Shown here one piece after another: positions 2,781 through 18,440 of a stretch of 32,000 nt of DNA (position 1 is its first letter; every line of letters begins with the position of its first letter). The translations under genes were made by a program, and so were the position numbers. Location: assembly GCF_042660085.1 (NCBI RefSeq), contig NZ_JBHSTI010000008.1:1117836-1149835 (forward strand). The letters are read 5' to 3'. Below the pieces are notes generated by a model that saw only the letters and a program-made list of their open reading frames with translations, did no database searches and had not been told where the DNA came from. The stretch is from Longivirga aurantiaca. GTDB taxonomy: Bacteria > Actinomycetota > Actinomycetes > S36-B12 > CAIYMF01.

Positions 2781-2903
2781 TCGGCGTACGTCGGGTGTCG
2801 AGCGTGTTCCGGGGCGCGCGCTCGGCGTACCCGGGTAACGGGAAAGGGGCGTAGCTGAGTGCCGAATCCGTCCCAGAGCGCACGCTGGTTACCCGGGTAA
2901 CGG
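2781..2903 (+). repeat. REP-like repeats: one diverged-subfamily unit plus one canonical unit
   Basis: 2781-2841 reads TCGGCGTACGTCGGGTGTCGAGCGTGTTCCGGGGCGCGCGCTCGGCGTACCCGGGTAACGG. 2854-2903 reads GCTGAGTGCCGAATCCGTCCCAGAGCGCACGCTGGTTACCCGGGTAACGG. The TACCCGGGTA cores at 2828 and 2890 are 62 bp apart. Confidence 0.85.
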
Positions 2904-2907
2904 CCGA

Positions 2908-3000
2908 TCAGTCGGTGGGGAGCGCGGGGCGGTGCATCACGGCCCAGGTGGGCGCGACCTCGACGCGGTCGTGGTAAGCCTTCGCGTCGCCGTCGCCGCG
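2908..3000 (-). pseudogene. 3'-terminal stub of a PNPOx-like gene (paralog of 14129..14452)
   Basis: Reverse translation ends ...GDGDAKAYHDRVEVAPTWAVMHRPALPTD*. This parallels the C-terminus VDGDAHVEGDRMEVTPTWAVMHRPALAGD* of the intact 107-aa copy. Similarity is lost upstream of about 3000. The 102-aa track ORF 2908..3216 overlaps the RCC1 gene start and has no recognisable N-terminal homology. Confidence 0.6.
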
Positions 3001-3161
3001 ACCTCGACCGCGCACCTCACGGGTTCCCGCCGTCGCATCGGGGTCGCCCAGCCTGCTGGCGGCGGACGCCCGGACCGACGCGTGGGGCACCCCGGGCAAA
3101 TGCCCGATGCGGCCCCGAGCCGGCGTCCCTAGCGTCGCGGCGAGGTCGGGGAGGCTCAACG

Positions 3162-6100
3162 ATGATGGGACGAACAGTGCGGGGCAGTCGGGCACGGGGT
3201 CGTACGGCTGGATCACCTCTTCGTCGCGGCGTGGTGGGCGCCTGCGTCCTCGCCCTCACCGCGTCGTTGCTGTCGATGACAGGGGCAGGCAGCGCGGTGG
3301 GTGCCTCCCTTCCCGCGGCCGTGGTCGCACCTCAGGCCGTGGACGCCGCTGCTGCCGTCCCGGCCAACGTGACCGTCGGGCGAGGGCACGCCTGCGCCCT
3401 CATGGCGACCGGATACGTGTGGTGCTGGGGGCGCAACGACCGCGGCCAGCTCGGCTACCCGAGCGCGACGACCCCCGGCGAGCCGCGCCCGGTGCCCGGC
3501 ATCTCCACGGCGGTGCAGGTGGTCGCCGGCGATCTGCACACCTGCGCCCGGCTCACCGATGGCACGGTGAAGTGCTGGGGGGCCAACGGTTCGGGTCAGC
3601 TCGGCAACGCCTTGACCGTCGACAGCTCGGCGCCGGTCGCAGCGATTGGGCTCTCGGGGGTCACCGATCTCACGGCTGGACGGGCGCACACGTGTGCCGT
3701 CGCGAACGGCCTCGTCTCGTGCTGGGGATCGAACGGGTTCGGCCAGCTCGGGCTCGGCAGTGTGCGCGAAGCGCGCCTCGGCCTGACCCAGTTGGCGCAG
3801 TTCTATGCGATCGGCGTCGGTTCGAACGCCACGGACGACAACGGGGACCTCGTGCTCTCCGACGCAGCGACCAACGGCACGCTCGGCAGCGGATCGGTCG
3901 TCCGGTACGGCGACGACGGCGTGATCAAGTCGTTCTGGAGCATCCCCGGAAGCACTCTCGTAGGTGGCGTCGCAACCGCCCGCGACGGGTCGCGCACCTA
4001 CGTCGCCAGCGCGTTCCCGGGTCAGGCCGTGGTCTGGGTGCTGTCCGGTACGACGACGATCGAACGCACGTGGAGCCTGGTGAGCAGCGTCCCGGGCTGC
4101 GTGACTGCGAGCTGCAGCGTCGTCGGCCTGACCACCGACGCCAACGGCACGGTCTACGCCGCGGTTCAGCGGTTCGATGGGGCCGGCGTCTCTCGAGCCT
4201 CGTTCATCGCGTCGGCGTCGAAGGAGGGACTCCCGCTCGGCGTGACCGATGTGACCGCTCAGATGACCGTCATCTCCGACGTCACCTGGGTCCCGGGGGC
4301 GAACCGGGGGACGGTGTGGGTGCTCGGTACCAACCTGGTCAACCCGTCGCCCTTCAACCCGTCACCCACCCTGTCGTCCTTCGCCATCCCGGCCACCGCC
4401 GGCTCGTCCCTGGTCTTCCTCAACAAGAAGTCGGCGTACGCCGCGGTGGAGAGCTGCGTGCCCTCGGAGGATTACGTGCTGGCGGATCAGACGACGCTCA
4501 GCGGCACTGCCTTCTACCGCCACCGACACACGTACCCGCTCGTCAACAGCCTCCGCCTCGGAACCGCAGCGGACGGCCAGCTGCTGCTCTCGGCCGACTA
4601 CTCCCAGGGCCGGCGTCTGGAGAACACCTTCACGACCAACCCTGCGGCCCCGGTGGACATCCAGACCAACTACACCAACGAGACGCCTGCCGAGGTCGCA
4701 GACTGCGTGATGGTCGTGGACCCCGCGGCCTCGTCAACGCAGGCAGCCAGCGTGGTCTTCACGGTCCGGGGCAGCGCGGGCGATCTCACGGATCTCCGGA
4801 AGCCGTTGGACGCAACGGAGTCCGGTGATGGCGGCATCATCGTCTCCGACCCCTCGTACGCCGCTGCCAGCCCCGCGAGGCTCCAGCGCTTCAACGCGGT
4901 GGGCTCGGTCACTCAGTGGGGCCGGGTGCCGATCCGCACGATCCCGACGCCGCTGATGCCGTTGCAGGCCCTGCAGCCCGGGCAGGCTGCACCGACCATG
5001 AGCAGCGTGTTCGCGGGTGCGCATCACACGTGCGCTTCCGGCGTCGTGAACGGCCAGCCGACCACGCTGTGCTGGGGCAGCAGCTCCTCCGGCCAGACGG
5101 GATGGCCCGCCTCGGGCGCGTCGGCCCTGCGCTTCGGCCTCCCTCCGTCGGACACCGGCGACCAGAGCAGCTTCCCGATCGCCATGCCCGTGATCGGCGC
5201 CGGAGTGGGCAGCGGCGGTCTGGCGCACACGTGCATCGCCCAGAACGGGTCGCCTCGTCAGATGACCTGCTGGGGCGCCAACGACAGCGGCCAGACGCGG
5301 CTCAACACGGTCGAGGGCGACATCTGGCGGAACGGCGGCACTCCCACGACCGTGCCGGTGACCGAGCTGGACTCAGGCGACCTCACCACGTGCACGATCG
5401 AGTCCACCGACCTGAAGCGCGTGCAGTGCTACGGATCGGACGCTTACGGGCAGACCTCGGTGCGTCCGGGCGCGTGCCTGAACAACCTGGACTTCGTGCA
5501 GACGGCCGGCTGCCAGCAGGTCGGTGGAGCGATGCACATCTCCGCCGGGCCTACCACGACGTGCGCTGCGACCGCCACCGGCATCGTCTGCTGGGGCGAC
5601 AACGCGTGGGGGACTCTGGCGACGTATGGCTCGCCTCTGGGCGCCGTCGGCGTCCCGCTCGAGGTGCCGAGCACGTTCATCGTGAGCGCCCCCGCGACGC
5701 TCGATGGAAGCCTCGTGGCGCGGTTCGGCACCAACCTGGACGCGCTCGACGCCACGACCGACGTGGTGCTCCGCGTCAAGGGATCGGCGAGTGCCCTGGC
5801 AAGCACGAAGAGTGTGTCGGCCGACCGTCGGACAGTGAGCATCAAGCCGGCAGCGCCACTCGTCGCCGGGCAGCAGTACGAAGTCGCAGTCAACACCGGC
5901 AGCGCCACAGCGCTCACCTCCGGCGGCCTGCCGCTGACCCCGTCCGTGGTGAGTGCCAGAGCCGCGACGGCGCTGGGTGACACCAGCCCGGCCAATACGG
6001 CGGCCTGGCCAAAGGTCAGCAGCAGCACAGCCCTGGGGGGCTCGTACGTGACGGAGCGGACGGCAGGAGCATCCGCGAAGTTCGCGTTCACGGGCAGCTC

Positions 6101-18023: not shown

Positions 18024-18028
18024 GCCGA

Positions 18029-18133
18029 TCAGTCGGTGGCGAGCGCGGGGCGGTGCACCACGGCCCAGGTGGTGGCGATCTCGATGCGGTCGAGCTTGGC
18101 GGCCAGGTCCTCGAGCGGTACGGCGATGCTCAT
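18029..18133 (-). pseudogene. internally deleted (in-frame) copy of the PNPOx-like gene
   Basis: A 34-codon ORF reads MSIAVPLEDLAAKLDRIEIATTWAVVHRPALATD*. It consists of the first 14 and last ~20 residues of the 14129..14452 product, so 219 nt (73 codons) are missing. The upstream ~100 nt (18134-18240) duplicate 14453-14560. Confidence 0.7.
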
Positions 18134-18197
18134 GCCCGCAGCCTCAGGAGTCCGGGGCGTGCGACCGACGGACTCGCGCTCTCGGTGTGAGCGTTCT

Positions 18198-18248
18198 CGG
18201 CGTACGTCGTGCTGGATCGCGTCGGAGCGAGCGCGATCCGGCACGGGG
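18198..18248 (+). repeat. degenerate REP-like unit (diverged subfamily, core lost)
   Basis: CGGCGTACGTCGTGCTGGATCGCGTCGGAGCGAGCGCGATCCGGCACGGGG aligns to 14517-14560. It has acquired its own inverted repeat GGATCGCG...CGCGATCC. Confidence 0.6.
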
Positions 18249-18440
18249 TTCCCGTGGCGGACGACCCGCTGGACGGACGACTCCTCGGCGAGAGGAGGCC
18301 GATCTGCCCACCTGCGCGACACCCTGCTCCGCGCGGACGATGCTGGCGTTGCGACCCGGCATCTCGTCGACCTCGATCTGGCCACCTGCCGACGGCTCCA
18401 GCGCCGGGCGGGAGCTCGTCACCGGCTGAGAGGACCTCCG

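Follow-up and report, generated by a model that had tools for sequence, protein, structure and literature searches.

How does a bacterial chromosome come to hold three copies of one small gene, each among different neighbors and only one of them whole? The question is raised by a 32,000-nt stretch of ~72% GC DNA from Longivirga aurantiaca (contig C8, positions 1117836–1149835; "the window" below), part of a 3.67-Mb metagenome-assembled genome (MAG) that is 96% complete. The gene encodes a PNPOx-like protein and is referred to here as P. The window holds an intact copy of P, a 3′ stub, and an internally deleted copy, all on the minus strand, along with arrays of a 62-nt repeat that resembles repetitive extragenic palindromic (REP) elements. 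An earlier note on this DNA had placed the three copies correctly, and had read the DNA between them as two accessory cassettes: block 1, with genes for RCC1-repeat, FG-GAP, and LAL regulator proteins, and block 2, with EamA-cNMP permease, aminotransferase, and cyclase genes. Here, we describe the copies, their counterparts in related genomes, and the history that they suggest: probably, the three copies are junction scars, left when three alternative versions of the locus were stacked in series and then pruned.

Three copies of one small gene

P can plausibly, if weakly, be assigned to the PNPOx-like FMN-binding split-barrel family (PF01243). Its intact copy matches PF01243 (PNPOx_N) with 18.2 bits, under the gathering cut-off of 28.1; it has 273 homologues, mostly of 105–110 aa, some of which are named PNPOx family or general stress protein 26 and some of which carry a precomputed PF01243 match. 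Its dN/dS of 0.23–0.43 points to purifying selection. Exact-protein look-ups with the PNPOx, Usp, GATase, and EamA proteins of the window returned no further record. Whole-genome BLAST finds these three copies of P only (E, 1e-12 to 1e-36). A conserved 23-nt tract likewise occurs three times in this genome, once each in six other genomes of the genus, and in none of the remaining 21. Among the 28 genomes of the genus, only this one has more than one copy.

The identities between copies come from pairwise local alignments; a three-way MAFFT alignment placed the intact gene wrongly. The stub matches the last 78–93 nt of P (2998–2921 vs 14219–14142, 66/78 identical), and a 34-nt tract within it is identical at 34/34 positions to the intact copy. 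The deleted copy consists of the first 43 nt of P, 100% identical to the intact gene, fused in frame to the last 62 nt; it lacks 219 nt, with a microhomology of only 2 nt (CG) at the join. Its 3′ end is identical to that of the intact copy at 50/60 positions (14190–14131 vs 18090–18031), and the 5′ flank plus 5′ end at 147/159 in a gapped alignment (14567–14410 vs 18247–18091), rising to ~97% across the proximal 110 nt; the ungapped window chosen in the earlier note for this flank has 14 mismatches in 108. Between the stub and the deleted copy, the note had counted eight mismatches in a 118-nt direct repeat (2854–2971 vs 17975–18092). The count is exact (93%), and the similarity runs on to 191 nt (2971–2781 vs 18092–17905, 163/191 identical, 85%). 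These similarities are not limited to the REP-like unit: they include 63–93 nt of coding sequence. The longest perfect tracts within the direct repeats are 45 and 54 nt. Overall, the repeats have diverged by 3–7%, and the copies of P differ from one another by 7–15%. The stub holds 27 nt more of P than does the deleted copy, and both share their stop-codon/REP junction with G007, the closest relative (G-numbers denote genomes, and L-numbers other loci or contigs).

Could the structure be a product of metagenome assembly, in which haplotypes of the locus from three strains living together were strung into one? Like all of its relatives, the genome is a MAG, and the context of each copy equals a different natural haplotype (see below), which is how false stacking would look. 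However, the joins lie in non-homologous sequence, with the stub abutting unrelated DNA; the deleted copy has an in-frame internal deletion; the cyclase and GCS2 genes are truncated; and the copies are not identical. Moreover, two independently assembled short-read contigs from run SRR22388094 (L057 and L069), 99.6% identical to the window, reproduce two long stretches of it, including the join between the aminotransferase and cyclase genes. L057 spans 7312–14171, in the order FG-GAP, LAL, P; L069 spans 14434–17317 and continues into the cyclase gene, in the order P, F1 (the segment directly upstream of the intact copy), EamA, aminotransferase, cyclase. Both contigs stop exactly where a 31-mer turns two-copy in this genome, L057 in the 34-nt tract shared with the stub and L069 in the 54-nt tract shared with the deleted copy. 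The agreement and the break points argue against an assembly artefact, which we regard as highly improbable.

Alternative neighbors of P in related genomes

P was found in six of the 27 other genomes of the genus, as a single copy in each. In every relative, it sits between the pta/ack side and the genes that lie 13–20 kb to the left of this window. Several arrangements occur: (i) in G007 (core ~90–94% identical at the nucleotide level), M20, AbgT, P, two REP-like units, and Usp are followed by a converging large cyclase gene; (ii) in G021 and L045, P is followed by Usp; (iii) in G018, the order is P, REP, pta; (iv) in L046 and L047, GCS2 diverges from P and is followed by GATase, with pta next; (v) in L049–L052, pta is followed by aminotransferase, EamA-cNMP, REP, and GCS2, then by P and a converging gene for a 1167-aa cyclase; (vi) in L058 (~90% nucleotide identity), the order is pta, REP, P, a spacer, LAL, and a converging FG-GAP gene; and (vii) in L059 (78.5%), P, LAL, FG-GAP, and RCC1 are collinear with window positions 3086–14380 (11.3 kb). 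In the window, the stub has Usp as its left set and no right set; the intact copy has the LAL module on its left and EamA-aminotransferase on its right; and the deleted copy has the cyclase on its left and GCS2-GATase…pta on its right. Every gene set of both blocks is thus a natural neighbor of P somewhere.

Two observations on P in other genomes stand apart. In L045 (MAG GCA_050249075.1), an IS256-type transposase gene (Transposase_mut, 8474–9730) lies directly upstream of the PNPOx-Usp pair, a further sign of the locus gathering inserted DNA. In G043, the single copy of P (C6:1526479–1526805) looks frameshifted past residue ~70; either a true pseudogene or a sequencing error could explain this in a long-read MAG.

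Because relatives of the L049 type carry the genes of block 2 beside P, that block is best read as an ancestral neighborhood of P and not as a cassette; the EamA-cNMP and aminotransferase proteins are 90–91% identical to those of L049 at the amino-acid level. Block 1 has a GC content of 0.693 (7.6th percentile) with a third-position GC content (GC3) of 0.87–0.90, and its RCC1 and FG-GAP giant proteins have no orthologue in the 27 other genomes of the genus. The RCC1/FG-GAP module is nevertheless collinear in L059, and partly so in L058 and L057; LAL regulator homologues occur at 99%, 92%, and 78% identity; and in L058 and L059 the LAL gene lies directly downstream of P, as in the window. L059 is 78% identical across block 1 plus the intact copy, and L058 (~90%) has the LAL-type set directly beside pta. 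Together, block 1 and the intact copy form an old natural haplotype of the lineage. We rejected recent foreign DNA as an account of block 1: it is weakly supported, with the nearest sequences outside the near-identical strain only 90% and 78% identical.

These arrangements bear on the proposal of the earlier note: a local, possibly REP-mediated duplication of P, with the copies bracketing inserted cassettes and the 118-nt repeats ending a 15-kb segment that could be excised or amplified. Its direct repeats, with their long perfect tracts, are real; REP-like units are ~30-fold enriched here in a single orientation; and the RCC1 gene lacks an orthologue in the genus. By contrast, the genes of block 2 are syntenic neighbors of P in relatives, L059 and L058 carry block 1 plus P in collinear order, the divergence of the repeats implies no recent turnover, and the stub differs from the deleted copy both in the length of P that it retains and in its allele type. 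Pfam scans of all large ORFs in the window (1–32000), from which our domain calls were made together with GC3 analysis, found no integrase, transposase, or relaxase, and there is no REP-associated tyrosine transposase (RAYT). As a whole, we consider the proposal very unlikely. Duplication and recombination at the locus hold good, as does a role for repeat units in at least one step (see below); the accessory cassettes do not. The comparison of synteny that the note had suggested returns, in relatives, a single P with alternative neighbors, among them the gene sets of the blocks. Direct repeats could, in principle, still recombine. With no integrase or transposase and with repeats this diverged, nothing points to an excisable element.

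Mosaic copies, a hybrid repeat, and the proposed history

The stub and the intact copy differ in allele type on the two sides of their 34-nt tract. In the 46 nt before the tract (nt 232–277), the stub is of the L058/G018 type (38/46, vs 32/46 to G007 and L046), and the intact copy is of the G007/L046 type (41/46, vs 35/46 to L058). Past the tract, the types are exchanged: the last 13 nt of the stub and its REP are of the L046/G007 type (13/13 and 11/13), and the last 13 nt of the intact copy, its spacer, and LAL are of the L058 type (13/13). Counting only sites where L058 and L046 differ, L058:L046 matches for the stub are 8:2 before the tract and 0:7 after it; for the intact copy they are 2:8 and 7:0 (Fisher p=0.0023 in both cases; 0.007 with G007 as the proxy). 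The two copies appear to be reciprocal recombinants of two allele types and not simple paralogues. Whether the deleted copy is a chimera of the other two was also considered. This idea was dropped: its 5′ 43 nt (100% match to G007 over 39 nt) carry no allele information, because they are conserved in all relatives.

A second mosaic is found in the F1 segment. The REP-like portion at its distal end is 95% identical over 37 nt to F3, which lies past the GATase gene, and the proximal portion corresponds to F2, the segment that precedes the deleted copy. F1 is the footprint of a deletion between direct repeats that flanked GCS2′-GATase in a duplicated copy. Because F1 is a hybrid of two elements flanking GCS2′-GATase, repeat units took part in at least one step.

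Other parts of the locus have decayed. The deleted copy of P lies between a cyclase remnant and a GCS2 remnant, the latter directly before the GATase gene. The cyclase remnant, which the earlier note had taken for a minus-strand ORF, is really on the plus strand (17300–17828); it retains the start, followed by aa ~148–200 and aa 1087–1167 of a ~1167-aa protein. Intact genes all carry a −10 box of the TAGGCT type ~7 nt ahead of the ATG, which suggests a leaderless mRNA; in the deleted copy, this box is mutated to GAGGCT, and there are three substitutions in an otherwise conserved tract. The genome has also lost 430 nt encoding the cyclase N-terminus (~aa 6–149; window 17300–17330) that L069 keeps (L069:113–542). 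The retained segment encodes zinc ribbons and the start of the cyclase domain, and is 84% identical to L049. This loss is a strain-level deletion polymorphism in a pseudogene, and decay is recent and strain-variable, because L069 retains what is lost here. The L069 N-terminus also indicates that whole genes were joined, which places the aminotransferase/cyclase join in intergenic DNA, at ~17076–17236. As for timing, the 118-nt repeat is identical at 110/118 positions between the stub and the deleted copy and at 102/118 between each of them and G007. Given these values and the shared junction, the duplication that gave rise to the two postdates the split from the G007 lineage.

Table 1. Features of the window in their order from left to right, with the evidence for each
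Feature	Position	Strand	Evidence and remarks
Usp, tandem-domain universal stress protein	588..1466	-	PF00582, 4e-46; "left module" directly after P in G007, G021, L045
REP-like array, three 62-nt units	1585..1770	+	Repeat search (family D2), nhmmer matches
Hypothetical gene between two REP arrays	1782..2723	-	GC3 0.95, no Pfam domain
Two REP-like units	2790..2907	+	Directly after the stop codon of the stub
P 3′ stub, last ~93 nt, hybrid allele	2908..3000	-	Local alignment, allele typing
Illegitimate join zone, stub to RCC1 promoter region	3001..3085		~85 nt; L059 homology stops at ~3086
RCC1-repeat giant protein	3162..6680	+	Pfam; part of LAL-type left module
FG-GAP giant protein	6665..11392	+	Pfam; part of LAL-type left module
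LAL/LuxR-type STAND regulator	11487..14003	-	Pfam GerE + AAA_16/22; directly downstream of intact P
Intact P, 107 aa, mosaic	14129..14452	-	Weak PF01243 match, homologues, allele typing
34-nt tract, inferred crossover zone	14142..14175	-	Identical to 2921–2954 in the stub
F1: promoter-proximal ~60 nt + degenerate REP unit	14453..14574	-	Hybrid; TAGGCT −10 box ~7 nt before ATG
EamA-cNMP permease	14590..15867	-	Pfam; "right module" with aminotransferase
Class I/II aminotransferase	15920..17038	-	Pfam; "right module" beside P in L049–L052
Haplotype-to-haplotype join zone, aminotransferase-upstream/cyclase-upstream DNA	17076..17236		Adjacency also in L069
Cyclase pseudogene	17300..17828	+	Protein comparison with ~1167-aa zinc-ribbon/guanylate-cyclase/AAA_16 protein
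REP-like units, two full + partial ones	17867..18028	+	Directly after the stop codon of the deleted copy
Internally deleted P, pseudogene	18029..18133	-	43 + 62 nt in frame
F2: promoter-proximal segment + REP-like unit	18134..18247	-	Unit 93% identical to the pta/P unit of L058
GCS2 (glutamate-cysteine ligase family 2) pseudogene	18291..18426	+	Last ~45 codons only, frameshifted
Class-II glutamine amidotransferase (GATase), intact	18441..19277	+	Pfam; 94% amino-acid identity to L046
F3: REP-like unit after GATase gene	19281..19331	-	Family D9; 95% identical to distal F1
Three unknown genes		+	
REP x2, AbgT transporter, M20 peptidase, REP x2	26283..29708		Module directly upstream of the single P in G007
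AbgT transporter	26409–28088	-	Part of 26283..29708 module
M20 peptidase	28061–29428	-	Part of 26283..29708 module
pta, phosphate acetyltransferase	29807..31900	+	Pfam, synteny; in every relative, the conserved anchor to the right of the variable locus

From the anatomy of the copies, the synteny in relatives, the mosaics, the hybrid repeat, and the pseudogenes, we infer the order of events, a circular intermediate, and a donor that is either foreign or a sister chromosome. In this actinobacterial lineage, P has a conserved pta side and a variable opposite side, and the neighbor sets to both its left and its right differ by strain. Each addition would be a homologous single crossover in or beside P that brings in a second version of the locus, duplicating P, with a non-homologous join elsewhere; the donor could be a fragment that came from a different strain and had become circular, or else a misaligned sister chromosome. 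The genome encodes Ku, which makes end-joining or circularisation plausible. In one event, the resident P-REP-Usp gene would cross over, within the 34-nt tract, with an additional L058-type haplotype, present as a circle or in some other form. This would set the LAL/FG-GAP/RCC1 version beside the resident one, yielding the intact mosaic gene and the 93-nt stub in cis, plus the non-homologous join at 3000/3001. In another event, a complete cyclase…P…EamA-aminotransferase version would be fused head to tail with a P-GCS2-GATase…pta version. Pruning would then have proceeded in two ways: recombination between REP-like units would delete GCS2-GATase upstream of the intact copy, and short deletions at ~2-nt microhomology would break the third copy of P, the cyclase gene, and GCS2.

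Several points weigh against this history. It is rebuilt from a single MAG and fragmentary relatives, and no donor with more than ~90% identity was found for any module; the events are therefore old, and their order is uncertain. The parental proxies for the mosaic test were picked post hoc, with the data in view. G018 naturally bears the allele combination of the stub (38/46 and 12/13). The stub could thus be a resident allele that has not recombined, in which case block 1 could have been joined by homology-facilitated illegitimate recombination instead of by reciprocal crossover. The second sample supports the junctions of the stub and the deleted copy only indirectly, via the contig breaks. 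Finally, the 22-mer across the internal junction of the deleted copy was not found in metagenomes of the Joint Genome Institute (JGI), where its nine matches are all due to chance, with no other similarity.

The same structure might also have arisen within a single genome. Unequal exchange between sister chromosomes would duplicate a cyclase-P-GCS2-GATase-REP-EamA-aminotransferase unit in tandem, followed by differential loss and by replacement of flanks through ordinary homologous recombination, with no foreign circle. The aminotransferase/cyclase join is of the kind expected from tandem duplication, connecting two complete genes through an intergenic zone; the 5′ pair is ~97% identical in the proximal 110 nt, and the stub and the deleted copy are 93% identical, closer than either is to G007; and the F1 hybrid requires a former second copy of the GCS2-GATase region. 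On the other hand, many extra losses are needed (EamA-aminotransferase in one copy, the cyclase in the other), plus a swap of the left flank to LAL; the reciprocal mosaic includes an L058-type allele, implying a second haplotype as the partner; and no sampled relative has the full unit postulated as ancestral. We therefore think an origin of this kind unlikely, and favor the stacking of alternative versions. The structure is a lineage-specific and fairly old accretion followed by decay, not a mobile 15-kb element.

The locus is an unusually readable record of chromosome growth without mobile-element machinery, in which alternative versions are added side by side via crossovers in a short shared gene and redundant parts are later pruned: an instructive yet ordinary case of recombination-driven genome growth and decay. 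There are practical consequences for annotation. Pseudogene is the proper label for the stub, the 34-codon ORF of the deleted copy, and the fragments of the cyclase and GCS2 genes, whereas that of mobile island should not be given to the 15-kb stretch. As a group, the EamA-cNMP, aminotransferase, cyclase, and PNPOx genes form a recurrent, conserved neighborhood, which may help to assign their function.

Elsewhere in the window, three further features were observed. The hypothetical gene at the left has no DNA match listed among the 27 other genomes of the genus, and is missing from the equivalent spacer of G007, where P, REP, and Usp are contiguous. Between a PRTase fragment and Usp, ~150 nt (411–563) are 78–84% conserved in at least 10 genomes of the genus, with a second copy in this genome (C8:1165749–1165877, 85%); the overlapping ORFs have no Pfam domain, Rfam has no match here or anywhere else in the window, and the segment may be an undescribed small gene or RNA. 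Lastly, a 1507-aa ORF (21754–26277; GC 0.75) has extreme AT skew (−0.40 to −0.49) and no Pfam domain; a 67%-identical homologue in G010 lies ~10 kb from the P gene of that genome.

The 62-nt repeats and comparison with known systems

The repeat unit (62 nt, core GTTACCCGGGTAAC) occurs 45 times genome-wide. The window, 0.87% of the genome, holds 12 of these units against ~0.4 expected, all on the plus strand and in head-to-tail arrays with a 62-nt period; 25 of the 45 lie within 1.0–1.2 Mb of C8. All arrays in the window are intergenic, several start no more than 10 nt past a stop codon, and every module border (1585–32000) bears repeat units, which makes the family a lead on how repeats shape gene order in uncultured Actinobacteria. 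Single units fold no better than shuffled sequence, so we claim no terminator or hairpin role for them. The Y1/RAYT transposase (Y1 HUH, PF01797) has no match in the 96%-complete genome, and control genomes did match. A DUF559-domain gene (C8:1169332–1169490) is itself bracketed by arrays of the repeat: the region at C8:1168301–1169630, ~18–20 kb past the end of the window, contains this gene (325-aa open frame) with arrays of three and two units.

This DUF559 protein may be the nuclease cognate to the repeats. Conceivably, P and its flanking arrays form a dedicated cassette-exchange hotspot at which breaks made by this nuclease spur recombination. If true, this would account for the 12 units, ten module boundaries, and three gene copies found within 32 kb, and would amount to an integrase-free system of gene-module shuffling in Actinobacteria. 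We regard it as quite unlikely.

The family is similar to the REP, BIME, and REPIN elements associated with RAYT (Nunvar et al. 2010, PMC2817692; Bertels and Rainey 2011, PMC3116915) in that short extragenic repeats form arrays just after stop codons. The likeness extends to a palindromic core, and at least one deletion here used the repeats as homology. There are also clear differences. First, there are 45 units here, vs typically >100 per genome in known systems. Second, units here are head to tail in one orientation, whereas known elements form inverted doublets or alternate in orientation. Third, the arrays bracket a DUF559 nuclease gene, with no Y1/RAYT gene in the genome. The family is REP/BIME-like in its mostly post-stop, extragenic location, and departs from the defining properties of REP/RAYT systems (PMC2817692), i.e., a RAYT gene and >100 inverted or alternating palindromes.

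The locus as a whole does not resemble an integrative island. Such an island would have a site-specific recombinase in or next to it, and none is encoded by the large ORFs of the window; near-identical end repeats made by integration, whereas identity here is 93% over 118 nt and 92.5% over 159 nt, with different sequences repeated at different joins (gene end plus REP vs gene start plus promoter); and content absent from an empty site in relatives, whereas EamA, aminotransferase, cyclase, LAL, FG-GAP, and RCC1 genes occur there beside P. It does show features of additive recombination scars, as left by integration of the single-crossover or homology-facilitated illegitimate type: the added DNA is bordered by incomplete copies of the anchor gene that all point the same way; it corresponds to alternative alleles or haplotypes of the same locus in other strains; and, subject to the post hoc proxies and the G018 allele, the anchor copies are mosaics whose breakpoint falls in sequence that they have in common.

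The nearest known parallel is with Rhs and contact-dependent inhibition (CDI) loci and type VI secretion system (T6SS) effector-immunity arrays, which hold orphan 3′ modules or displaced gene ends, for which one homologous and one illegitimate join per module addition has been proposed (Kirchberger et al. 2017, PMC5361080, and references therein). As in those loci, successive modules here are anchored on conserved sequence, each leaving displaced 3′ remnants in series downstream. Here, however, the anchor is a small redox-type gene and not a toxin gene, the remnants are decaying pseudogenes, and there is no evident effector-immunity logic or selective reason for keeping them. In homology-facilitated illegitimate recombination (de Vries and Wackernagel 2002; Prudhomme et al. 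2002; Meier and Wackernagel 2003, as cited in PMC5361080; see also PMC3240628), foreign DNA is likewise added through one homologous anchor, here the region of the 34-nt tract of P, and one non-homologous join, here 3000/3001. The classic outcome deletes resident DNA, whereas here the anchor is partly duplicated, with both reciprocal products in cis; this seems to fit the integration of a circle by single crossover better. Lastly, flexible genomic islands of the additive and replacement kinds (Lopez-Perez et al. 2014, PMC4033161; Alteromonas pangenome, PMC4898812) also occupy one site between conserved genes, carry strain-specific gene sets, and are exchanged by homologous recombination in their flanks. 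At the locus described here, by contrast, several replacement alleles are stacked additively, without a tRNA gene or integrase, and the pivot lies inside the island, not at its border.

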